Source: a virus. Taken from it: DNA of 64,000 nt. Shown here one piece after another: positions 9,242 through 19,354 of the stretch. Where the stretch lies: IMG/VR virus record IMGVR_UViG_3300021420_000001, positions 32,001 to 96,000 of that record; one strand, 5' to 3'. Within the stretch, counting starts at the first letter, position 1. Every line of letters starts with the position of its first letter. The position numbers and the translations under genes are program-made. Below the pieces are notes generated by a model. That model had not been told where the DNA came from. It did not search any database and saw only the letters and a program-made list of their open reading frames with translations.

Positions 9242-11674
9242 CTAAGCCGCTACCGGCTCCTCCAAAAGGTTTCGCTTGAGCCTAATGTTAGTCATTTGCT
9301 TGATCTGTTCTTCTGCTGCCGCACCGTAGCGATGACGAATCATACCTAGGTAGACGGGAGATGTGAAATACACCTGGAAAGCCATATCGCGGAAGGCAAG
9401 GACCTGTTTGGCCGTAAGACTCTGCGTACTCAACGGAAGACAATCTTCTGAATGTTGTGCGTAGCCGCTCCAATTCTTGGGCAGCTCAATCCCAGTCTTG
9501 ACGGCTTCCTCGTATAGCTTGGAGCCAGGATATGCCATTGCCGAGTAGAAGTTGGCGTACTCGGTGTTCAGTTCCATTGCCAGCCTCAACGTCGCCTGCA
9601 TAGAAGGATAGTCATCATCAGGAAGCCCGAAAATATAATTCCCAATGACATTAATACCGGCCCGTTGAATATTCCGTACAACATCCACAATGTCATCATT
9701 CTTGAGTGCCTTCTGGGCTCCATCGCGGACGTGCTTGGAACCGGACTCGATCCCGAGTGCTAGCCAGCGGAAGCCCGCCTGCCTAAGCATTTCCAATGTA
9801 TGGGGCTTGACGGTATCGATCCGCGCGTACGCCCACACATTGATCTCTTTGCCGAGTCCGGTCGCGATCAGCTGCTTGGCAATTGCCGTATAGTGACGTT
9901 CATTGAGCACGAACATCTCATCGACGATCTTGAAGGTCTTGACACCGTAACGGGCATTAAGCATGACCATCTCGTTGACGACTTCGGTCGAGTCGCGCAT
10001 CCGGTAAACGTTATTACCGAAAGGAGCCGATATGCAACAGAAACTACAATTTTTGACAAGAACGTTGTTCGCGTAAAACCATCCCGTAGCTGGAACCGTC
10101 AGACAGTAGACATCATGTACACCCTTCAGGGGCGTAACCGACACCACCCGATGATTGATCAGCTTCCCATCTTCCTGTTTATTTTTCCATGGATTGAAAT
10201 TACGGCGGCCTGCAAAATCCTTTGCATGCTTTGCCTCTACGCTTCGATAAGCCCGACCAGTCTCATGATCTGTCCACCAGCGACGTCTCACTTCTTCACG
10301 TTTTTTAGCTGCTATACGCAACTTCGCAATATAAGCAGGATCGGCTGCACGCTTCTGAGCAGCCTTACGATAATTTTCAATGGATTTTGCAGAACGTGTT
10401 AATCCTGTTAAGCCTTTTGTAATTTTAGCGCGCCATTCGGGGGTCATGTTTTTAGCGGGATTATTTGTTCGCATCCGTTCCCCAATTTCAGGATGCTGAG
10501 AAAAATGCTCTAAGGCTGATGCGTAATACTCAAGGTTATTGGGATGATCATTTGTAGAATCGTGATCTACGTGATGTACATGCTCTGTCTTTTTAAGTCG
10601 ACGTTTAATCAAATATTCCATGATCATCCGAGAACGGACCTGCCGCCCACGTCCACTCCAATTAACATATATACGTTCTACGTAAGAATTATACTCAAAT
10701 CGAAGGGCACGAACATGCGCACCCTCAACAAGATTTTGAGCTTCGCATGCCCATTGTTTTCCCTTAGCTTTTGTTTGCCCCCACTTGAACTGAAGGAACT
10801 TGTGATCAGGGGTACAATCAATATGGGTTCCATCATCAAAACGAACCCGAACGAGTTTCGACTTTCCATACTTTCGAATATGGATAGAGTCCGTAATGTA
10901 TGCTCGCTTTGATTCAGGATCAAAGGTGTATATAGGAACTCCCTTGTCACCAAAACGTTTTACGAGTTCTCGTATTGGAATATTCCCATAAATCGTATTT
11001 ACAGGAGTATCTCCTGCTAAACATTTAAAAGGGCAATTTAACGTGGTGTGAATAGAAGCGTACGGTTGGCGAGATGATCCGTCCAAAACCTGCCAATTGT
11101 GACTTCGGTACTTGTTCATTGGGAGCAAGTCCCAGGCGTTACCGTGCAAGTGCTTCATATCAATTAGAGGGGCGGACGGGTTGAGATAAACATTATCACC
11201 GTCACGCCAAACGAGGCCAGGGATGTCGTCTTGGTCTTGTCCCGTAAGCAAGCCTAAGATGGTAACCGGACCCTCACCAACACAGGCATAGTCAATCGAT
11301 TCCTCCTGCATCGTTCGCTGGGGAAGGGCTGAGACATGTCCGCCAACCATGATGATCGGAGATTCTACAGCTAGCCGTTTGATTGCTTTAGAAATAGCGC
11401 CAGCTCCTGGCATTTGTTGCGTAGAAGCTGATGGCTGATGCCCATAAGCTGCGATGCAAACTAGACGAGCCCGTGCCGCTAAGATGCAGGCTGCGACCTC
11501 TGAAGGAGAGAAACCTTCGGCTTCAGCGTCCAAAATCTTGACTTCAAACCCACGGTCACGAATATAGCCGGCGATCAGGCGTGCCCACATAGGGGGTTCA
11601 CAGGCGACGAGGTTCTGATCCAGGTCGCCGTAAGCAGTTGTGCTCGGCGGATTGACGATCAACAAATCAAGCAT
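9242..11674 (-). CDS. Cobalamin-dependent radical SAM enzyme (class B methyltransferase-like), intein-containing
   Basis: B12-binding N-domain (LLIVNPP, VKILDAEAE, IMVGGHVSALP, GEG). The CxxxCxxC motif is CPFK|CSFC after intein removal. Also FKIVDEMF, LGIESGS, YIFGLPDD, YPGSKLY. Spliced product 485 aa. Confidence 0.9.
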   Translation of the reverse strand: MLDLLIVNPPSTTAYGDLDQNLVACEPPMWARLIAGYIRDRGFEVKILDAEAEGFSPSEVAACILAARARLVCIAAYGHQPSASTQQMPGAGAISKAIKRLAVESPIIMVGGHVSALPQRTMQEESIDYACVGEGPVTILGLLTGQDQDDIPGLVWRDGDNVYLNPSAPLIDMKHLHGNAWDLLPMNKYRSHNWQVLDGSSRQPYASIHTTLNCPFKCLAGDTPVNTIYGNIPIRELVKRFGDKGVPIYTFDPESKRAYITDSIHIRKYGKSKLVRVRFDDGTHIDCTPDHKFLQFKWGQTKAKGKQWACEAQNLVEGAHVRALRFEYNSYVERIYVNWSGRGRQVRSRMIMEYLIKRRLKKTEHVHHVDHDSTNDHPNNLEYYASALEHFSQHPEIGERMRTNNPAKNMTPEWRAKITKGLTGLTRSAKSIENYRKAAQKRAADPAYIAKLRIAAKKREEVRRRWWTDHETGRAYRSVEAKHAKDFAGRRNFNPWKNKQEDGKLINHRVVSVTPLKGVHDVYCLTVPATGWFYANNVLVKNCSFCCISAPFGNNVYRMRDSTEVVNEMVMLNARYGVKTFKIVDEMFVLNERHYTAIAKQLIATGLGKEINVWAYARIDTVKPHTLEMLRQAGFRWLALGIESGSKHVRDGAQKALKNDDIVDVVRNIQRAGINVIGNYIFGLPDDDYPSMQATLRLAMELNTEYANFYSAMAYPGSKLYEEAVKTGIELPKNWSGYAQHSEDCLPLSTQSLTAKQVLAFRDMAFQVYFTSPVYLGMIRHRYGAAAEEQIKQMTNIRLKRNLLEEPVAA
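10049..11023 (-). mobile_element. Intein (325 aa) with HNH endonuclease and NUMOD3-like segment
   Basis: Starts CLAGDTPV, block B IDCTPDHKF, ends VYCLTVPATGWFYANNVLVKN followed by Cys+1. Internal HVHHVDHDSTNDHPNNL. Visibly AT-richer than the exteins. Confidence 0.93.
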
Positions 11675-11799
11675 TATACGTTTCCATACCTGGAATTTCT
11701 CAGCATTTTGTAGCCAAGGATCAGCTCTTTAATTCCGGCATCGAGCGAGTACTTAGGTCGCCATCCAGTGGCTTCAATCTTGGTATTGGAGACAATCAT
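11674..11799 (-). pseudogene. Displaced duplicate 3' end of the epimerase gene (41-aa mini-ORF)
   Basis: MIVSNTKIEATGWRPKYSLDAGIKELILGYKMLRNSRYGNV* aligns without gaps to the epimerase C-terminus VVSNAKIEATGWRPKWTLDKGIEELIKGYCMLRNTVHGNI*. Confidence 0.9.
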
Positions 11800-12272
11800 G
11801 GATGCTTTTCCGGGGGCCAACGATTGCCACTTTTAATTGAACAAATATGTGCGTAATGAACTCCAAATCGACGGCTGAGCGCCATCATACCTTCTTTACT
11901 TGCCCTAATATAATCAACAATTTCCCACGTCAGTTTGGCTCTAGCATTCTGCTCGCCCGGTTGCGACTTAGCAGCGCCGTTTGTACGACCCTTACGAGCA
12001 CAATCAGACATATTATCCAAGTGCGTTCCTAAAAATAAATGACTTGGTCGAACACAACTTGGATTGTCACAGGTATGACAAACTTCTAATCCTTTTGGGA
12101 TAGCGCCAAAGTGCAATTCCCAACAAAAGCGATGAGCTTTCTTTTGTACGCCAGCAATCTTTATCGCCCCATAATCACCGTTCTTAGACAGATCCCAAAA
12201 CCAACATTTACGGGTCTTAATAACATGCCGCCAAAACCGTTGAACGGGAGTTTCGTCTGGCCAACGAGACAT
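11796..12272 (-). CDS. Free-standing HNH homing endonuclease
   Basis: RFWRHV..CWFW..YG..AHR..VCHTCDNPSCVRPSHLFLGTHLDNMSD..KGR, then GEQNARAKLT and a C-terminal HTH. Likely start is ATG 12272 (TAATG overlap). Confidence 0.92.
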   Translation of the reverse strand: MSRWPDETPVQRFWRHVIKTRKCWFWDLSKNGDYGAIKIAGVQKKAHRFCWELHFGAIPKGLEVCHTCDNPSCVRPSHLFLGTHLDNMSDCARKGRTNGAAKSQPGEQNARAKLTWEIVDYIRASKEGMMALSRRFGVHYAHICSIKSGNRWPPEKHP

Positions 12273-13204
12273 TAGATATTTCCGTGAACCGTATTGCGAA
12301 GCATACAATAACCCTTAATCAATTCCTCAATTCCTTTGTCCAAAGTCCATTTTGGCCTCCACCCAGTAGCTTCAATTTTAGCATTTGAAACTACATAATT
12401 CCTTTTATCCAGGTCTTCTCCAATAGGAGATTCAAGGAAGACGAAGTTGGGCACGTGAGTCTTAATTCTTTCGCATAATTCGCGCTTAGACAGGTTTGCG
12501 TCGGATAAACCCACATTGTAAATCTGACCCTTCATCTTACCGAAACGATAGAGCCCTTGCAGGAATGCAGCAGCGGCATCTCTAATGTGGATGTAGTTGC
12601 GTTTGAAATCCGCCTCGAAAAGTACTACCGTCCTATCGTGTACGGCACGATATACAAAATCGTTAACCAGCAAATCGATACGCATACGGGGAGACATACC
12701 GAAGACAGTCGCGAGTCGGAAACTGATACTGTTCTCGCGTTCCATCACAATCTTTTCGGCATCGACCTTGGTCTGACCGTAAAGACTGATGGGCTTGAGT
12801 GGACTCTCCTCGGTACATTCCTTACCCGGTTCCCCGATACCATAACCGCTATTCGAGATCGGAATCAAGACAATTTGTTCTTTGCTCATATGCGAGATTG
12901 CAGTCTGGACGGCACCGACATTGGTACTCGTAGCCGCCAATTGATCTCGATCACAGAGTGGCGCACCGACAAGAGCGGCTAGTGGAATGAAGACGTCGTT
13001 GACTTTTAGCTCTGACTCCAGAATGCGATAGTCTCTTGCATCCCCATTGATAACTTCAAAATGGGGGCTGGAACAAAGGGCGTTTAGCGGGGCTTGGCCA
13101 AACAGAAAGTTGTCAATGACGGTAACCCGATGCCCGTCAGCAAGAAGGGCTGGAACGAGGATACTTCCGAGATATCCCGCTCCCCCGGAAACCAGTACCC
13201 TCAT
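12272..13204 (-). CDS. NAD-dependent epimerase/dehydratase/reductase (extended SDR)
   Basis: VSGGAGYLGS Rossmann motif, YGQTK (YxxxK), FRLATVFGMSPRMRIDLLVNDF. Confidence 0.92.
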   Translation of the reverse strand: MRVLVSGGAGYLGSILVPALLADGHRVTVIDNFLFGQAPLNALCSSPHFEVINGDARDYRILESELKVNDVFIPLAALVGAPLCDRDQLAATSTNVGAVQTAISHMSKEQIVLIPISNSGYGIGEPGKECTEESPLKPISLYGQTKVDAEKIVMERENSISFRLATVFGMSPRMRIDLLVNDFVYRAVHDRTVVLFEADFKRNYIHIRDAAAAFLQGLYRFGKMKGQIYNVGLSDANLSKRELCERIKTHVPNFVFLESPIGEDLDKRNYVVSNAKIEATGWRPKWTLDKGIEELIKGYCMLRNTVHGNI

Positions 13205-13479
13205 CCAGAAACTCCCAAGAACTCTTCCTTTATGATTGAAGGTTCACAATGTCGACGCCTAATATCAAATCCGCGGCGCTTTGTTACTGTGACGAGAAAT
13301 TCTCGTGAACCAATATCATCACTAAACAAAAGCTCGTAAGGAGTCTCTGGAATAAATTCTTTTGTCTTATCGACATCTCGTATATCTAAGGGAAGCCACG
13401 CAGCTTTCTCCGTCTCAAAAAGTAGACAAGCCCGGACCCCATTATCATCATAAGCAAAAATGCTGATGGTACGCTTCAT
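13201..13479 (-). CDS. Hypothetical protein
   Basis: Likely start MKRTISIF with AGAGGG upstream; stop overlaps the epimerase start. Confidence 0.5.
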   Translation of the reverse strand: MKRTISIFAYDDNGVRACLLFETEKAAWLPLDIRDVDKTKEFIPETPYELLFSDDIGSREFLVTVTKRRGFDIRRRHCEPSIIKEEFLGVSG

Positions 13480-13523
13480 GCTACAACCCTCTTTATGCCA
13501 GCCCCGCCACTCATCAGAATACG

Positions 13524-13982
13524 TTATCGGGCACGCTGCGGTCCTTGATTCTGATCTTGGTATTTTCCGTTGTATGGAATTTCCGTTGGCCGATCTAACT
13601 GATGAAAGATAACTTGGGCAATTGCCCATCCAGGCTCCATTTTCAGTAGCTCAAGATTATGATATGTAATTTCAAGCGTGAGGTATCCCCGCCAACCCGG
13701 CTCCAACACGGTATTTTGAACCAAAAGTCCACGACGCGCCAAAGAAGATTTATCATGCACTACACCAACAATGTTATCTGGCAAATTGAAACGTTCAAGA
13801 GCTGATGCTAAAACAAAACAACCATTATACAATGTAATTTGTTCCGCTAAAGTTATATCTACGCCACAAGCACTAAGTCCTATAGAATTACCAAAACCAT
13901 CTTTCGACGATTCGTTAAGCGGACTTACTAAACCATTCCCACTTACACTAAACTGTCTGATTGTTTGGGCGCTAAGAACCAA
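13524..13982 (-). CDS. dcd: dCTP deaminase / trimeric dUTPase superfamily
   Basis: VHDKSSLARRGL, NTVLEPGWRGYLTLEI, IAQVIFH, YNGKYQDQ. Confidence 0.88.
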   Translation of the reverse strand: MVLSAQTIRQFSVSGNGLVSPLNESSKDGFGNSIGLSACGVDITLAEQITLYNGCFVLASALERFNLPDNIVGVVHDKSSLARRGLLVQNTVLEPGWRGYLTLEITYHNLELLKMEPGWAIAQVIFHQLDRPTEIPYNGKYQDQNQGPQRAR

Positions 13983-13983
13983 G

Positions 13984-15135
13984 TTACACCAATACCTTCT
14001 TCATGATCTCGACCGCCCGACCAATCTGCTCCTCTATTGGGTACGGGGCGCAGCCGATGAAAAGTCCACAATCGTGGATACGATCCGCATTCGGCGTTTC
14101 GGCCTGAGACCGCCAGGGAGCCCCATAGGCGTGCTTGAGGAACGAGCCCCCCGTCGGTAAGCGCGAGTCAATCCCCGCGTCAGCGAGCTCCGCAACGAGT
14201 CTGGACCGCATTTCCGACGAAGAAACGGTGAGGGGGAGCCCAAACGGGCTGGGATCCATGCTCCGGCTGACCGGTAGTTTGATCGGGAGGTCTTTCGTCA
14301 AGTCTCGGAACAGGGCTAGATTACGTTGGCGGGCGACGATGAAGCCCTTGAGCTTCTTCAACTGCTCCCGCGCGATAGCGGCATGCATTTCCAAGGGACG
14401 GAGGTTGTATCCGAAGTGGGTAAAGTTGTAGCTGTCCTCGAAGGTCTTCGGTGGATCGACGTCGCGGGTCCAACCATGGGCCCGGAGAATGCGACAGAGC
14501 CTAGCGCACTCAGCATCATTTGTAAGTACGAGACCTCCTTCTACAGCACTGATCTGATGCGAATGAAAGAAGGAGAACGAATTCATTAGGCCAAGGGTGC
14601 CACAGAGATCGTTGCCGTAGTAGGCACCCAGGCTTTCGCAGTTGTCTTCGATGAAGTAGCCACCGTGGGACTCGATTGCGACCTTCAGGAAGTTCAGTGG
14701 CGCGGGGTTGCCAAGAATTGAACAACCAACCACCAACTGAGAGCCAGTAACATCAGGTAGCCCAGAACACCAAGTATTATCGCAGTCCTCAATTTTGAGG
14801 CGAAGTCCCGCGTTAACAAGCGGAGCATACGTGGTACTCCAAGCTAGGGCCGGGACGATAACCTGATCCCCACGCTTGAGGGGGTGTTCCTTTTTGGCGA
14901 AGAGTGCCGCAACCATCAACAGATTGGCAGATGATCCGCTATTGCACATAATGCCGTACTTCATCTTGTGAAAGCCGGCGAACTCCTCTTCGAACTGCTC
15001 GACCTCTGGACCCATTGTAAAGCGGTCAGAGGCGATAACCCGATGAATCGCAGTCTTCTCGCGCTCGTCCCAGGACGAAAATGCGGTCGGATACCAAAAT
15101 CCCTTATTCCAAGGCTTGACTACGACGTCGTGCAC
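13984..15135 (-). CDS. DegT/DnrJ-family PLP enzyme, ColD-like NDP-4-keto-6-deoxyhexose 3-dehydratase
   Basis: NSGSSANLL, VPALAWSTTYAP, EDNCESLG, SFFHSHQISAVEGG (His where aminotransferases have Lys), AHGWTRD, GYNLRP. Confidence 0.88.
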   Translation of the reverse strand: MHDVVVKPWNKGFWYPTAFSSWDEREKTAIHRVIASDRFTMGPEVEQFEEEFAGFHKMKYGIMCNSGSSANLLMVAALFAKKEHPLKRGDQVIVPALAWSTTYAPLVNAGLRLKIEDCDNTWCSGLPDVTGSQLVVGCSILGNPAPLNFLKVAIESHGGYFIEDNCESLGAYYGNDLCGTLGLMNSFSFFHSHQISAVEGGLVLTNDAECARLCRILRAHGWTRDVDPPKTFEDSYNFTHFGYNLRPLEMHAAIAREQLKKLKGFIVARQRNLALFRDLTKDLPIKLPVSRSMDPSPFGLPLTVSSSEMRSRLVAELADAGIDSRLPTGGSFLKHAYGAPWRSQAETPNADRIHDCGLFIGCAPYPIEEQIGRAVEIMKKVLV

Positions 15136-15377
15136 GATGTCCTCTTACGTTTACGTTTACTATACGGTGCGGATTGACGCCGGGCTCTCTTTGGTCGAAT
15201 CAAAGCCTGAACCTTGGCTCGGGCTTCGTTCACACAAGGAATGCAAAAATAATGCGTAACCCGATTTTTGTCGCGTCGAACCCCGGCCATAGTCTTTTGG
15301 TGAATTGGACACCAGGGCACGATACGTCCTGAATTAAGTGGTGGGATTTCTGTAGGCTCCCACCCGGCCTTGGTCAT
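15120..15377 (-). CDS. Small basic Cys-containing hypothetical protein
   Basis: 85 aa; CPIH and CIPC. Confidence 0.5.
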   Translation of the reverse strand: MTKAGWEPTEIPPLNSGRIVPWCPIHQKTMAGVRRDKNRVTHYFCIPCVNEARAKVQALIRPKRARRQSAPYSKRKRKRTSCTTS

Positions 15378-15517
15378 CTCTAAATCCCCTTAGCTGGCAG
15401 GGTCGGCTATGACCATCACCTTAGCCGCCGTGAAGGGGTAGTCGGTATTAGGCCGTAAATCCGGGTTTCATTTCTAGGCTGGTGCCTCCTCTGGTTGAGG
15501 GTGGGAAGGTCTGCAAA

Positions 15518-16081
15518 TCAACCATACTGAGAAAGTTGCTCGATGCACAACGTAGAGCCCTCTCGATTTAACGCATCTCGATACAAAGGCATGACATCCT
15601 GCGCATGGTCGATATTGACGACCACTATGGTCTGTAACATAGCGCGGAATGCTGCAGAAAAGTCTCCCAAATGCTGGTGCCCAGGATCGAGAGGTCTGTC
15701 CGTTGCGATTGCGGTACGGATGATGACTTTGGGACGATAGGCTGAGTAGCGTGGGATGGCATCTAGGTGAAGTACAAGTTGACTCATTGCCAATAGCAAA
15801 AAGTTCACGCGCGGATAGATACAAATGGGCAGGTCACCATTCAGGGAGGCCCCAATTGCAGCACCAAGTTGCATATCCTCAGCGACGGGCCACTCGATTC
15901 GCCTATGCATTGGAACATTACGCAAAGCGTTGAACATCGCAGTACCCGGAAATTGTACCGCCTGACCCAGAAAGACAGAACGCGGATGCTGAGACAGCAT
16001 CTCCATTGCTTTACAGAGTTCAGAGAAGTATGCCGTCTCCGGCTGCTGCGTAGGGGCGACGCGGACGCTTGGCACTGACAA
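15518..16081 (-). CDS. TPP-dependent enzyme, E1-beta/transketolase pyrimidine-binding domain (short)
   Basis: SVFLGQAV, EWPVAEDMQLGAAIGASLNG, IYPRVNFLLLAMSQLV, PGHQH. Confidence 0.87.
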   Translation of the reverse strand: MSVPSVRVAPTQQPETAYFSELCKAMEMLSQHPRSVFLGQAVQFPGTAMFNALRNVPMHRRIEWPVAEDMQLGAAIGASLNGDLPICIYPRVNFLLLAMSQLVLHLDAIPRYSAYRPKVIIRTAIATDRPLDPGHQHLGDFSAAFRAMLQTIVVVNIDHAQDVMPLYRDALNREGSTLCIEQLSQYG

Positions 16082-16090
16082 GGGTTGATC

Positions 16091-16681
16091 CTAGAAGTTG
16101 ACGCGGACGCCAGCCCCACTATGGGGCCAAGGCAATTTGTAGTGGAACGCAAGCACACCAGGAGCGTCAGCCTTGAACGGGTCGCCCCAAGTTTCCTGGG
16201 TTGGGGTACACACCGACTTGCCATTGTCCTCGATCACAAAGTCAAGGGGTAAATTGTGTCCTTGCGAATAGACAACGCACTCAGTGAACATCCCAGTAGC
16301 GGAAGTCATGTCCCCAACGAAGCACCAGACCCGATTCTTGCCGCCCGCTCGTTTGATGGACCAGGCAATCCCAAGAGCAATCGGCAAAATGCCTCCGACA
16401 ATTGCGGAGGATATTATGCGACGTTCAGGATAACAAAGCGTAATAGACTTTCCCGCGAGGATGTCTCGCTTAAGTATTTCAGGCGGGACGCCGTGCAGTA
16501 AACATTTGTAGTGACTTCTCCAGGAGCAACAAACCCAATCGTCCGGGTAGACCTGTTTGAAGATTTTGATGAGTTGTTCTTCATTCCCCCCATCCAAATG
16601 TATTGGGGCTCTAATATGCCCCGCATTGAATTCGGCAGCGATGTCTTTTTCGAACGCGATGAGCTCTTCAGCGGAAAGCAT
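16091..16681 (-). CDS. TPP-dependent enzyme, E1-alpha-like (short)
   Basis: IRAPIHLDGGNE, WRSHY, SSAIVGG, FVGDM...VIEDN (variant TPP motif), PHSGAG. Confidence 0.88.
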   Translation of the reverse strand: MLSAEELIAFEKDIAAEFNAGHIRAPIHLDGGNEEQLIKIFKQVYPDDWVCCSWRSHYKCLLHGVPPEILKRDILAGKSITLCYPERRIISSAIVGGILPIALGIAWSIKRAGGKNRVWCFVGDMTSATGMFTECVVYSQGHNLPLDFVIEDNGKSVCTPTQETWGDPFKADAPGVLAFHYKLPWPHSGAGVRVNF

Positions 16682-16844: not shown

Positions 16845-17225
16845 TCAATTCAACTTATCGAATTTGACGACCGTCGGCTTCGGCTTATTCTCAGGATCAG
16901 ACTTGAAAAGCCAAGTCGTATAAGCATCCAGGTCTTCGCGGGTCAGAAAGAATTCCCATTGACCATCAAAACTTCCGTCCCCGTTAATCTCCGTAAGCAT
17001 ATCCGCAACGTCAAAAGCCATCAGTGCGGGCGGAAGGTTCTCAGCCTTGAGTTCGTCACTCCGATCGATCTTGATCAAAAGTATACCGGGTTCGAGGAAC
17101 TCTACGATCTCACCCCACTGGCTGTACTCGTTACCGCAATGAAAAACAAACTTGCCGACGAAGCTGTTGTTCATGAAAATACATTCCAATTGCCAAAGTC
17201 CTCGACAAGTTCTGCTGCAAAACAA
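16845..17225 (-). CDS. Hypothetical protein
   Basis: Acidic ORF in operon orientation; true start probably MNNSF. Confidence 0.55.
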   Translation of the reverse strand: MFCSRTCRGLWQLECIFMNNSFVGKFVFHCGNEYSQWGEIVEFLEPGILLIKIDRSDELKAENLPPALMAFDVADMLTEINGDGSFDGQWEFFLTREDLDAYTTWLFKSDPENKPKPTVVKFDKLN

Positions 17226-17749
17226 TCTACTTTGTAGTCTTTGCGCCCACCCGCTTCCTCGGCAAGGATATTCTTTGCCGAATTCCTGACGCCATTGATG
17301 CTATGCGTCAATTTGAGAAGCTTGTCCTGCTCGGGACCACCTTCCCGCGCGTGCGCCTCATTCTCCCAAATATATCGATTCGTAAGTTGTATTAATGTGA
17401 TCGCCATAATCGCACGGGCAGTCAACTTGTGGTCAAGCTCATTTAGGATGATGTCAATGTCATGAAGGATATCCGCGCGCTCTTGCAGATAGTGATCACG
17501 TTGTTTCGGGATGAACACCATTTTCTGTTGTGTGATCGTCAAGCGGTCGACCAAATCACTTAATGTCGGAAGATACCGGCGCTGCGGGATCTGATTTGGA
17601 ATAGAAACTACTGCAGCCGCTTGACGTGGTCGCTGGGATGGAAGGTCTCGTGTTTGGAATCCCGGAATTCCGGTCGTCACATCCTCAGGCACGTCGGCTC
17701 CAAATTCATCCACGATTGACCCCACTATGCAACTGCCTTCTGCTTCCAC
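17171..17749 (-). CDS. Helical protein (DUF6165/DUF4254-like), often adjacent to glycosyltransferases
   Basis: TLSDLVDRLTITQQK...TNRYIWENE...INGVRNSAKN pattern, recognised by eye. Confidence 0.55.
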   Translation of the reverse strand: MEAEGSCIVGSIVDEFGADVPEDVTTGIPGFQTRDLPSQRPRQAAAVVSIPNQIPQRRYLPTLSDLVDRLTITQQKMVFIPKQRDHYLQERADILHDIDIILNELDHKLTARAIMAITLIQLTNRYIWENEAHAREGGPEQDKLLKLTHSINGVRNSAKNILAEEAGGRKDYKVDCFAAELVEDFGNWNVFS

Positions 17750-18681
17750 GCCTCTATCGGTCTATTCATACCATCCAAAATACCGATCTGCTGGAGTGCC
17801 TTACCCACACAGTTTTCAGGAGAGAGCTTTTCCATGAACGCTTTCATCTGCGCAGCATGGACACCCTTCCAGGCCGTACGGGTAAGTATACACTGATCGT
17901 AAAAGCTTTCGATCGATGGCGCAAACCGTACGATCTCATCCCAAGGCTTACTGAGGAAGTGAGGTTCGGCGACAACTGGACGACCAAGACAAAGTGCGGT
18001 ATTGCAACGCGAAGAACTGACAAGCCCCATCTCCTCGAACTTCCTGATCTGTACGATGACCTTGGCCTGACGCATAATCCGATCGCGTTCGGTCTGATCC
18101 TTGAAGTCGGCGATGATACGTACACCCTTCTCGGAAAGATTAGCACGACGGGCGAGCATCTTCAATATCTTCAGGCGGCGCTTGGTCAACGACCCGTAGA
18201 AGCCGAAGTCATACGTCGGGGCGAAGTCTCCAGTACGCACGAGGGAAGGTGCGTAACCGAGTTCACAAGGTGCGGCAGGACAGAACTGACCATACCACTT
18301 GGTAACATGATCACCGGGAACGAGATGGATAATGCCCTCGGCATATTTGGCGGCTTCCGGGAAGGTCTTCTGGCGAAAGACCATCTCCTTTTGGGTACCT
18401 TGATTGAAACCCTTCTCGGAAGGTTCCTCAGTCGCCAGGATGATGAAGCGTGCGCCAGATTCATAGCCGTGCGCTAGAAGCTTTATGGCGTCGGGGGTGA
18501 AGCCTTCCACCACTATGTTCATGCCCTGACCTGCCAGGGTATTCAGGAACATGTGATTACGTTGATCCCAAACTATTTCGTGACCTAGAGCCCTGCAAGC
18601 ATGTCCGAAAATACCAACGACGTCTTCAAGTGATCGCTGCCCTAAATCACTGTGGTTGGCCATATTTACGAGGAAGTTCAA
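17725..18681 (-). CDS. Putative GT-B glycosyltransferase
   Basis: YDFGFYGSLTKRRLKIL, ERDRIMRQAKVIVQI, SSSRCNTAL..PVVAE resemble the C-domain of CgeB-like GTs. Confidence 0.7.
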   Translation of the reverse strand: MNFLVNMANHSDLGQRSLEDVVGIFGHACRALGHEIVWDQRNHMFLNTLAGQGMNIVVEGFTPDAIKLLAHGYESGARFIILATEEPSEKGFNQGTQKEMVFRQKTFPEAAKYAEGIIHLVPGDHVTKWYGQFCPAAPCELGYAPSLVRTGDFAPTYDFGFYGSLTKRRLKILKMLARRANLSEKGVRIIADFKDQTERDRIMRQAKVIVQIRKFEEMGLVSSSRCNTALCLGRPVVAEPHFLSKPWDEIVRFAPSIESFYDQCILTRTAWKGVHAAQMKAFMEKLSPENCVGKALQQIGILDGMNRPIEAWKQKAVA

Positions 18682-18862: not shown

Positions 18863-19354
18863 TTACTCTACGACCTCGTAGGCTACGGCCCGCATCATAT
18901 CACCGGTTCTAATCAGAGGTTTAGCGCCAAAAGTTTTTGGATTGCTTGGATCGTATTTCGTATTCCCTGCTACGCCTCTGGCTCTAAGGGTAGCTGGCTT
19001 CAGTGGTGGCGTATTTGTGTCTTTAATTGATTGCCGTAACTGCTCAGCAATAAGAACTCCGGCTTCTCCTAAAGCTAGGTTTGTATCATAATTATGCTTC
19101 TTCAAAAGCCCTGCAAGTCCCGCAGGCCACTCGGGACTCTTTGCCTTCACCATATTACTGAAGAAAGGTCGTGGAGGAATTCCTGCTCTCGGTGCACCAT
19201 AATTCTGGATAGCGGCGATAAGCGCCACAGAAGTCCCGTTCGGATAGCGCGCACCGGCCAGAAAACCAACATGAAGCGTAGCATACTTATCTAATTTGGC
19301 CGTAATCTCGACCAGGGCCCTCTGGAGTTTGTCGCCGCCACGGATTTCGGCCAA
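18863..19354 (-). CDS. Neck/virion morphogenesis protein (HK97 gp10-like)
   Basis: VGFLAGARYPNGTSVALIAAIQNYG..IPPRPFF...PLKPATL...KPLIRTGDM. Confidence 0.85.
   Translation of the reverse strand: MAEIRGGDKLQRALVEITAKLDKYATLHVGFLAGARYPNGTSVALIAAIQNYGAPRAGIPPRPFFSNMVKAKSPEWPAGLAGLLKKHNYDTNLALGEAGVLIAEQLRQSIKDTNTPPLKPATLRARGVAGNTKYDPSNPKTFGAKPLIRTGDMMRAVAYEVVE

Follow-up and report, generated by a model that had tools for sequence, protein, structure and literature searches.

A set of genes on one strand of a soil phage genome has, by our estimate, about an even chance of encoding a route that turns a nucleoside diphosphate (NDP)-sugar of the host into a 3-deoxy sugar with a carbon branch at C4, which glycosyltransferases of the phage would then transfer. 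The genes lie at positions 9,242 to 16,681 of the 64,000-nt stretch analysed here (“the window”), which comprises bases 32001-96000 of the IMG/VR virus record IMGVR_UViG_3300021420_000001; the record as a whole is 111,480 bp long, has direct terminal repeats, and is rated complete. The cassette encodes a pyridoxal 5′-phosphate (PLP) enzyme, a two-chain thiamine diphosphate (ThDP or TPP) enzyme, an extended short-chain dehydrogenase/reductase (SDR), and a cobalamin (B12)-dependent radical S-adenosylmethionine (SAM) enzyme, and is a widely conserved, uncharacterised enzyme set. Oxidation at C4 and deoxygenation at C3 of an NDP-heptose or NDP-mannose are well founded as predictions, by homology to assayed enzymes; branching at C4 by the ThDP enzyme is a prediction supported by conserved linkage and by precedent in the family.

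In the order proposed, the SDR, which resembles Cj1427, would first oxidise C4, a reaction type suggested by its similarity to a solved protein (discussed below). The PLP enzyme, of ColD type and in its pyridoxamine 5′-phosphate (PMP) form, would then take off the 3-hydroxyl to give an NDP-3-deoxy-4-keto sugar, consuming glutamate; by our own inference, the resulting alpha-ketoglutarate could re-oxidise the NADH bound to the SDR, closing a cofactor loop. Next, the ThDP heterodimer would decarboxylate a 2-oxo acid (probably pyruvate) and add the acyl anion to the C4 ketone, giving a tertiary alcohol with an acetyl-type branch, as the conserved linkage and the alpha-KADH2 and YerE precedents suggest. 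In the fourth and weakest step, the radical SAM enzyme, once spliced, would tailor an unactivated carbon, most likely by C-methylation. Finally, CgeB-like glycosyltransferases of the same late operon would attach the sugar, perhaps to a virion protein, a step proposed from gene position only.

The PLP enzyme belongs to the DegT family (Pfam, 187 bits), and its sequence at the catalytic site is NSFSFFHSHQISAVEGG. A preliminary description of this DNA had noted a histidine in place of the catalytic lysine (SFFHSHQ) and had called the enzyme ColD-like, and both observations are borne out: in a HMMER alignment the Ser-His pair coincides with S187-H188 of ColD, so that a Ser-preceded His replaces the Schiff-base Lys of the DegT fold, and the best solved relative is Escherichia coli O55 ColD (2gms) with 258 bits, whereas the Fe-S enzyme E1 (3bcx) scores only 119. 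In length, too, it is near ColD (390 aa) and below E1 (437 aa). The similarity and the Ser-His dyad together point to a ColD-type 3-dehydratase reaction. They say less about the sugar: HS:5 heptose dehydratases are 62-67% identical to characterised C3-dehydratases of E. coli O55:H7 as well as of Yersinia pseudotuberculosis (PMC10440746), so that the ColD clade does not separate hexose from heptose enzymes, and a 6-hydroxy 4-keto-heptose is also accepted by enzymes of this clade (PMC10680097).

The extended SDR that had been described beside the PLP enzyme is likewise present, with GGAGYLGS (GxxGxxG), SNSG (catalytic Ser), and YGQTK (YxxxK) motifs. It is about 57% identical to PDB 6vo6 over residues 2-303, its full length, the next solved protein scoring 83 bits; we take 6vo6 and 6vo8 to be Cj1427, a GDP-heptose C4-dehydrogenase. 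As this is the sole SDR of a complete genome, the level of identity suggests that it most likely makes a 4-keto sugar from a stable NDP-sugar of the host, opening the pathway instead of reducing its product. Cj1427 re-oxidises its tightly bound NADH with alpha-ketoglutarate (PMC10680097, PMC7949155); together with a ColD-like HS:5 C3-dehydratase, PLP, and glutamate, it yields GDP-D-glycero-3-deoxy-4-keto-heptose in vitro (PMC10680097). The phage is predicted to encode exactly this pair of enzyme types, a Cj1427-like SDR and a ColD-like dehydratase.

Two other assignments of the SDR were considered and rejected. A ColC/Fcl-like enzyme gave a weak C-terminal match only. A 4,6-dehydratase is contradicted by the Ser found instead of the Thr-Asp/Glu motif and by the Cj1427 likeness; the genome has no other gene of SDR fold. 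The SDR has at least 8000 relatives at E below 1e-40, and homologues at 66-80% identity come from soil Acidobacteria and Alphaproteobacteria (Bryobacterales, Terriglobia, Azospirillum, Stellaceae), which may hint at host range or at the origin of the gene.

The preliminary description had placed the SDR after branching, as a terminal reductase: GDP-4-keto-6-deoxymannose from the host would lose its 3-hydroxyl to the ColD-like enzyme, be branched at C4 by the ThDP enzyme, reduced by the SDR, and methylated, giving a yersiniose-like 3,6-dideoxy sugar. The PLP enzyme is indeed closest to ColD, of which this is the natural substrate; no reductase other than the SDR is encoded, and a Cj1427-type enzyme is reversible in principle. 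The SDR is, however, far from solved 4-reductases while closely matching a presumed C4-dehydrogenase along its whole length; related cassettes adjoin heptose kinases and nucleotidyltransferases rather than GDP-mannose 4,6-dehydratase; and the ColD clade, as noted, takes the 6-hydroxy substrate as well. This order of events now seems improbable; apart from the place of the SDR, the earlier outline is largely correct.

The neighbours of related cassettes bear on the substrate. Searching with the ThDP alpha chain gave a set of 105 related loci: 80 viral (kept from 186 confirmed viral stretches) and 25 in metagenome-assembled genomes (MAGs), the latter from bacteria of the Candidate Phyla Radiation (CPR), DPANN archaea, Pelagibacterales, Nanopelagicus, Caulobacter, and others. 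L049, one of three loci in which the ColD-like gene is close (49-55% identity), has the radical SAM gene followed by a nucleotidyltransferase and a GHMP kinase with best NCBIfam matches to HddC and HddA. An HddA-like kinase is encoded in 23 loci, where in MAGs its gene often abuts the ThDP pair, and an HddC-like transferase in 10 loci. L007, the most frequent viral type, has genes for PfkB and cytidylyltransferase-like proteins with best matches to the two domains of HldE/RfaE (rfaE I and II), and the cultured cyanophages S-SM2 and P-TIM68 have a fused ThDP enzyme in heptose and lipopolysaccharide (LPS)-like clusters. Because heptose-activating genes adjoin these relatives, the substrate is probably a heptose rather than a 6-deoxymannose. 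The window phage and its nearest relatives, L003 (a 118-kb viral contig) and L014, have no activating genes at all.

Family searches of the whole 111,480-bp genome found no nucleotidyltransferase (PF00483, PF01467), PfkB kinase, RmlC-like epimerase, second SDR, or zinc alcohol dehydrogenase. The statement that neither a nucleotidyltransferase nor a 4,6-dehydratase is visible thus extends to the complete genome. That the phage draws on its host was correct insofar as the host must supply an NDP-sugar and cobalamin, the activating enzymes not being encoded; the further claim that it takes a 4-keto-6-deoxy intermediate, leading to a 3,6-dideoxy yersiniose-like sugar, was not supported, given the missing 4,6-dehydratase and the heptose-activating genes beside related cassettes. 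As no 4,6-dehydratase is encoded, the product is probably a 3-deoxy sugar that keeps its 6-hydroxyl, rather than a 3,6-dideoxy sugar.

The same searches leave the phage genome with no encoded reductase for the branch (no second SDR, no zinc alcohol dehydrogenase). In the two cyanophages a zinc alcohol dehydrogenase directly precedes the fused ThDP enzyme (S-SM2, L001 7957-10179; P-TIM68, L002 7970-10194), among annotated heptose genes (phosphoheptose isomerase, kinase, adenylyltransferase) and with no ColD-like gene found within 9 kb; it could be the branch ketoreductase that the window cassette lacks.

The ThDP enzyme had been described as a minimal two-chain TPP enzyme, which holds, the alpha chain matching E1_dh and pyruvate dehydrogenase (PDH) E1-alpha models and the beta chain Transket_pyr. 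The alpha chain is above the Pfam cut-off, with the profile covering E1_dh positions 7-171 of 300; phrog_34187 is matched by the alpha chain in its N-terminal half and by the beta chain in its C-terminal half. E1 chains are typically over 300 aa. Full-length E1 chains with a transketolase_C domain on beta are not what is found here: the chains have 196 and 187 residues, and beta consists of the Pyr domain only. Within these lengths, alpha G123, D124, E151, and N153 are kept in at least 95% of 108 homologues, and beta E68 (the cofactor-activating Glu), H105, D107, and H137 in at least 95% of 98. With the alpha GD...N and the beta activating Glu conserved to this degree, the pair is predicted to be catalytically complete.

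Membership in the YerE family, in which one chain combines TPP_enzyme_N, TPP_enzyme_M, and TPP_enzyme_C domains, was rejected: a TPP_enzyme_C match on alpha is weak and below cut-off, and the best matches are to the E1 family. By its domains, then, the pair is assigned to the E1 (alpha-KADH2) lineage, not to the decarboxylase superfamily of YerE, and the analogy with YerE drawn previously gives way to one with AviB1/B2 and KbDH-alpha/beta. AviB1/B2 and Pau11/12 are E1-type pairs proposed to branch sugars, with genetic and feeding evidence for branching in aldgamycin, and KbDH-alpha/beta couples pyruvate to ketones in vitro (PMC4753412, PMC12247030); there is no structure of an E1-type ketone-accepting ThDP enzyme (PMC12247030). 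The lack of a beta C-terminal domain and of E2 and E3 favours a carboligase over an oxidative complex. The family is not small: among 1.84 billion representatives, 116 clusters (at 50% identity) match with E below 1e-30 and 390 below 1e-10, mostly of about 200 aa.

Conservation of the gene linkage is the main argument for joining the ThDP enzyme to the deoxygenation. According to tblastn counts, the beta chain accompanies alpha in 79/80 viral and 22/25 MAG loci, and is adjacent to it in 101/105. A DegT protein is found in 57-58/80 viral and 11/25 MAG loci, in every case sharing its strand with the ThDP pair and for the most part no more than 3 kb away. His occupies the catalytic-Lys column in 68 of the 70 loci with a DegT partner, though most of these proteins are only 25-30% identical to the window enzyme; the most frequent type, too, has ColD as its closest match (193 bits). 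This association supports the sequence suggested earlier, with 3-deoxygenation followed by TPP-dependent branching of a C4 ketone. Other partners are the Cj1427-like SDR (51/80 viral and 17/25 MAG, 68 in all), the B12 radical SAM enzyme (35/80 and 12/25, 47 in all), an RmlC-like epimerase (47/80 and 8/25), and a four-helix protein of unassigned function (39/80 and 1/25).

The radical SAM enzyme, previously described as cobalamin-dependent, does have both a B12-binding and a Radical_SAM domain (Table 1), and its class-B architecture is established. Its closest solved sequence is 9ccb (MgmA; E 3e-13), a B12-dependent glutamine C-methylase (PMC11796369). A structural model of the L014 homologue (59% identical; predicted local distance difference test score, pLDDT, 91) matches TsrM, AprD4, MgmA, CysS, OxsB, and TokK about equally. 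C-methylation of the product is plain inference, methylation being merely the commonest class-B activity.

The gene is interrupted by an intein. Four intein-free homologues read ...CPFA/CSFC..., where the window sequence reads ...CPFK(C...324 aa...N)CSFC...; the insertion falls exactly between the first two Cys residues of the CxxxCxxC motif, and excision restores the motif as CPFK/CSFC. The insert begins with Cys1 (CLAGDT...), has a block B TxxH (CTPDHKF), and ends in Asn followed by Cys (...LVKN/C). Its position within CxxxCxxC implies that enzyme activity requires splicing. None of the 105 related loci has the intein, and all 39 full-length radical SAM homologues there lack an insert.

Several observations weigh against the pathway proposed here. 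With the SDR, the PDB title of 6vo6 is only “putative sugar-nucleotide epimerase/dehydratase,” which leaves its identity with Cj1427 as our presumption, and the homologues of the SDR all have generic names (“nucleoside-diphosphate-sugar epimerase”), so that they give no independent confirmation. As to substrate, GDP-heptose, ADP-heptose, and GDP-mannose are all candidates in the host of the window phage. For the radical SAM enzyme, every NCBIfam model scores far below its cut-off (HpnJ, the highest, with 135 bits against 578); class-B enzymes include the non-methylating OxsB and BchE, and AprD4, which matches the fold about as closely, dehydrates 1,2-diols. The penultimate residue of the intein, for which splicing is predicted, is Lys (VKN/C), not His; some active inteins lack the penultimate His.

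Further points of this kind concern the ThDP enzyme. The alpha chain is only remotely similar to solved E1-alpha (E 5e-5), and the two chains match solved or characterised E1 enzymes with E values of 5e-5 and 0.01. About a quarter of the loci with the pair have no DegT gene within 10 kb, and the pair may therefore work in other contexts as well. The antibiotic-pathway pairs to which it is compared are likened to it by description, not by sequence, and belong to secondary-metabolite clusters, not to a heptose glycan context in phages and uncultured microbes.

These points would fit a pathway in which oxidation and deoxygenation proceed as above with no branching at C4: the ThDP pair would decarboxylate a 2-oxo acid to some other end, or cleave a carbon-carbon bond, and the radical SAM enzyme would rearrange or dehydrate the sugar. 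Besides the remote E1 homology and the loci with the pair but no dehydratase, the presence of AprD4 (diol dehydratase) and OxsB (ring contraction) among the similar-scoring folds, with HpnJ as best family match, is in keeping with this. The tight same-strand link of the pair to His-type 3-dehydratases argues for branching, as does the fact that all acyl-branched sugars so far known from bacteria derive from a 3-deoxy-4-keto acceptor and are 3-deoxy next to the branch (PMC9306805); an oxidative complex is ruled out by the missing beta domain, E2, and E3. We consider the version without branching unlikely, and prefer the pathway with a C4-branched product.

The surroundings of the cassette suggest where such a product might go. 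The genes are all intact open reading frames (ORFs) on the minus strand, within the late structural operon, with Neck1 on one side, tail-terminator genes on the other, and a fibre gene nearby. In the direction of transcription, a gene for a 978-aa Gly-rich fibre is followed by two PF13524 glycosyltransferase-like and three methyltransferase genes and by Neck1 (18863-19354); then by a CgeB-like glycosyltransferase, a conserved gene of unassigned function, ThDP alpha, ThDP beta, and the ColD-like gene; and then by the dCTP deaminase, SDR, HNH endonuclease, and B12 radical SAM genes, four small ORFs, and the tail terminator, sheath, and tube. Three CgeB-like glycosyltransferases accompany the cassette in the late operon, and the L003 cassette has, flanked by its SDR and radical SAM genes, a homologue (52% identity) of the one nearest to the window cassette. 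With fibre, transferases, and cassette held by both L003 and the window, these have been co-inherited in two phages. From gene position only, glycosylation of the virion with the cassette sugar is plausible.

In L003 (7645-20581) a fibre-like gene stands directly before the cassette, and the same block has a PNKP-type HAD phosphatase and an O-methyltransferase. It also holds homologues of the window genes for a 261-aa protein, GT298, and a 206-aa protein, which in the window are spread over about 20 kb.

The same chemistry could instead serve the host envelope, with LPS, capsule, or S-layer as the target during infection. Cellular loci in MAGs use the same cassette, presumably for surface polysaccharides, and the cyanophage homologues are in LPS-like auxiliary clusters outside the structural modules. 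Against this, the window cassette is within a late structural operon with its three glycosyltransferases, beside a fibre gene, as L003 has a fibre-like gene directly preceding its own; no flippase or polymerase was seen, in a search for them that was not exhaustive. An envelope target is accordingly somewhat doubtful, if less so than a pathway without branching, and a virion protein seems the more plausible target.

The conserved protein encoded between this glycosyltransferase and ThDP alpha may be a virus-specific accessory of the pathway. It has 38 invariant columns, and its AlphaFold2 core has pLDDT above 90; the invariant polar residues are R, H-D, W-N-E, T-H, N-G-R-N, K-N, and R-D-K-D. 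Foldseek against the PDB gave nothing below E 0.8, there is no Pfam or PHROG match, and the Atlas gave only a weak link to DUF6165.

Other searches of the region gave little. Among deposited phages, a nucleotide search had a sole match, a 113-bp stretch of the dCTP deaminase gene in phiAxp-3, so that there is no close cultured relative, and megablast of 23 kb against a phage collection found nothing. Rfam gave zero matches from 7 to 31 kb at E up to 0.1, and therefore no TPP or cobalamin riboswitch there; a scan for promoters and terminators gave counts at the shuffle expectation.

Table 1. Features of the cassette and adjoining genes, in window coordinates
Feature	Position	Strand	Basis
B12 radical SAM enzyme, C-extein from CSFC onward, with radical SAM core	9242..10051	-	Pfam Radical_SAM 43 bits
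Intein, 324 aa, with HNH homing-endonuclease domain, inside CxxxCxxC	10052..11023	-	Pfam Intein_splicing; NCBIfam intein N-terminal; PHROG HNH at residues 342-418
B12 radical SAM enzyme, N-extein up to ...CPFK, with B12-binding domain	11024..11674	-	Pfam B12-binding 62 bits; alignment with intein-free homologues
Remnant copy of SDR 3′ end, 41 codons	11674..11799	-	Translation ending ...MIVSNTKIEATGWRPKYSLDAGIKELILGYKMLRNSRYGNV and stop matches SDR C-terminus
Free-standing HNH endonuclease, a lineage-specific insert that separates the SDR gene from the radical SAM gene	11796..12308	-	Pfam HNH_3 61 bits; PHROG endonuclease
Cj1427-like extended SDR, 310 aa; predicted NDP-heptose C4-dehydrogenase, proposed first step	12272..13204	-	PDB 6vo6 E 4.7e-105; only SDR in genome
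dCTP deaminase, 152 aa; lineage-specific insertion	13524..13982	-	NCBIfam TIGR02274 98.7 bits (equivalog cut-off 92.8)
Predicted ColD-type PMP-dependent sugar 3-dehydratase, 383 aa, His for Lys	13984..15135	-	Motif SFFHSHQ; ColD 2gms E 1.2e-75
Beta chain of ThDP enzyme, 187 aa; consists of Pyr domain and lacks the C-terminal E2-binding domain	15518..16081	-	Pfam Transket_pyr 25 bits (cut-off 27)
Alpha chain of ThDP enzyme, 196 aa; PP domain with cofactor-Mg motif GDM...EDN	16091..16681	-	Pfam E1_dh 38 bits; NCBIfam PDH E1-alpha 66 bits
Conserved four-helix protein, function unassigned	17171..17725	-	Homologues in 39/80 viral, 1/25 MAG loci
CgeB-like GT-B glycosyltransferase, candidate transferase for the product	17725..18681	-	Atlas feature score 0.97-0.98; TM 0.7-0.8 to Glyco_trans_1_2 clusters

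Not every gene of the stretch belongs to the pathway. The dCTP deaminase gene, the free HNH gene, and ORFs of 85 and 142 codons occur in none of the 105 related loci, and in L003 and L014 the ColD and SDR genes are direct neighbours; the deaminase and HNH genes and the two ORFs, like the intein, are therefore lineage-specific insertions and not pathway parts. The diverged copy of the SDR 3′ end behind the HNH gene overlaps the HNH stop and the radical SAM start, and the two together look like a homing cassette that carried its own replacement 3′ end for the SDR gene. The 142-codon ORF (13201-13629), which is not conserved, overlaps and adjoins the dCTP deaminase gene.

The deaminase gene, a bona fide one between the ColD and SDR genes, might also be taken to mean that the cassette serves hypermodification of DNA. 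This is scarcely credible: the deaminase is in 0/105 related cassettes, the core enzymes all have close nucleotide-sugar homologues, and among the genes near the cassette neither a DNA glycosyltransferase nor a base hydroxymethylase was found.

Should the nucleotide-sugar pathway proposed here be correct, it would lead to branched higher sugars of a new class, and the ThDP pair, of roughly 380 residues, would represent a minimal two-chain carboligase family, one that is common in phages, in CPR bacteria and DPANN archaea, and in bacteria of freshwater and marine origin but absent from the model organisms that have been studied. Ketone-accepting ThDP enzymes are wanted as biocatalysts for tertiary alcohols. 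The place of a rare-sugar pathway in a virion operon suggests glycosylation of the particle with a sugar that the host may not make, and the intein at the Fe-S motif would make the last enzyme dependent on protein splicing. A more specific version, which we hold tentatively and at somewhat less than even chances, is that the sugar has not been described in any organism: a 3-deoxy-4-C-acyl-branched, possibly C-methylated heptose of at least nine carbons, made by a pared-down ThDP heterodimer and with a closed cofactor loop, and placed by CgeB-like glycosyltransferases on the neck fibre or another virion protein.

Several known systems resemble parts of the cassette. The modification of GDP-heptose for the Campylobacter jejuni capsule (PMC10680097, PMC10440746) is closest in its first steps, with the SDR match to 6vo6, a PLP enzyme in the ColD clade, and, in cassettes related to that of the phage, HddA/HddC-like heptose-activating genes and RmlC-like epimerases. 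In C. jejuni, however, the two enzymes are not natural partners: the dehydratase there follows a 4,6-dehydratase, there is no ThDP or B12 radical SAM step, and a C4-reductase ends the route, while the phage cassette has no reductase, epimerase, or activating genes. The GDP-colitose pathway (Gmd, ColD, ColC) shares the dehydratase, to which the phage PLP enzyme is clearly homologous, Ser-His dyad included, but the phage lacks Gmd and ColC, and its sole SDR is Cj1427-like, not GDP-fucose-synthase-like.

Class B radical SAM enzymes, whether methylases (MgmA, CysS, TokK, TsrM), the ring-contracting OxsB, or the related diol dehydratase AprD4, have the same N-terminal B12-binding domain and radical SAM core; the phage enzyme differs in that it presumably acts on a nucleotide sugar and in the intein that interrupts its gene at the cluster-binding motif.

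For the branching step itself there are two kinds of model. In yersiniose A synthesis (3-deoxygenation by E1/E3, branching by YerE, reduction by YerF), and for the LPS sugars of ErwE and MMAR_2332 (PMC9306805), a 3-deoxy-4-keto NDP-sugar likewise receives a ThDP-activated acyl group at C4. YerE-type enzymes are single-chain proteins of the decarboxylase superfamily, though, while the phage pair is E1-like; ColD-type deoxygenation in the phage would need no Fe-S cluster or E3 reductase, no YerF-like reductase is present, and the sugar is probably a 6-hydroxy heptose, not a 3,6-dideoxyhexose. The second model is that of AviB1/AviB2, Pau11/Pau12, and KbDH-alpha/beta in actinomycete antibiotic pathways. 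From these the phage enzyme differs in the shortness of its chains (196 and 187 aa), in its missing beta C-terminal domain, and in its marginal similarity to solved E1; it shares with them the two-chain E1 alpha/beta arrangement without E2 or E3, for which transfer of an acetyl unit from pyruvate to the carbonyl of a keto-sugar is proposed (in the case of KbDH, shown), giving the kind of tertiary alcohol that would be expected of the phage pathway.

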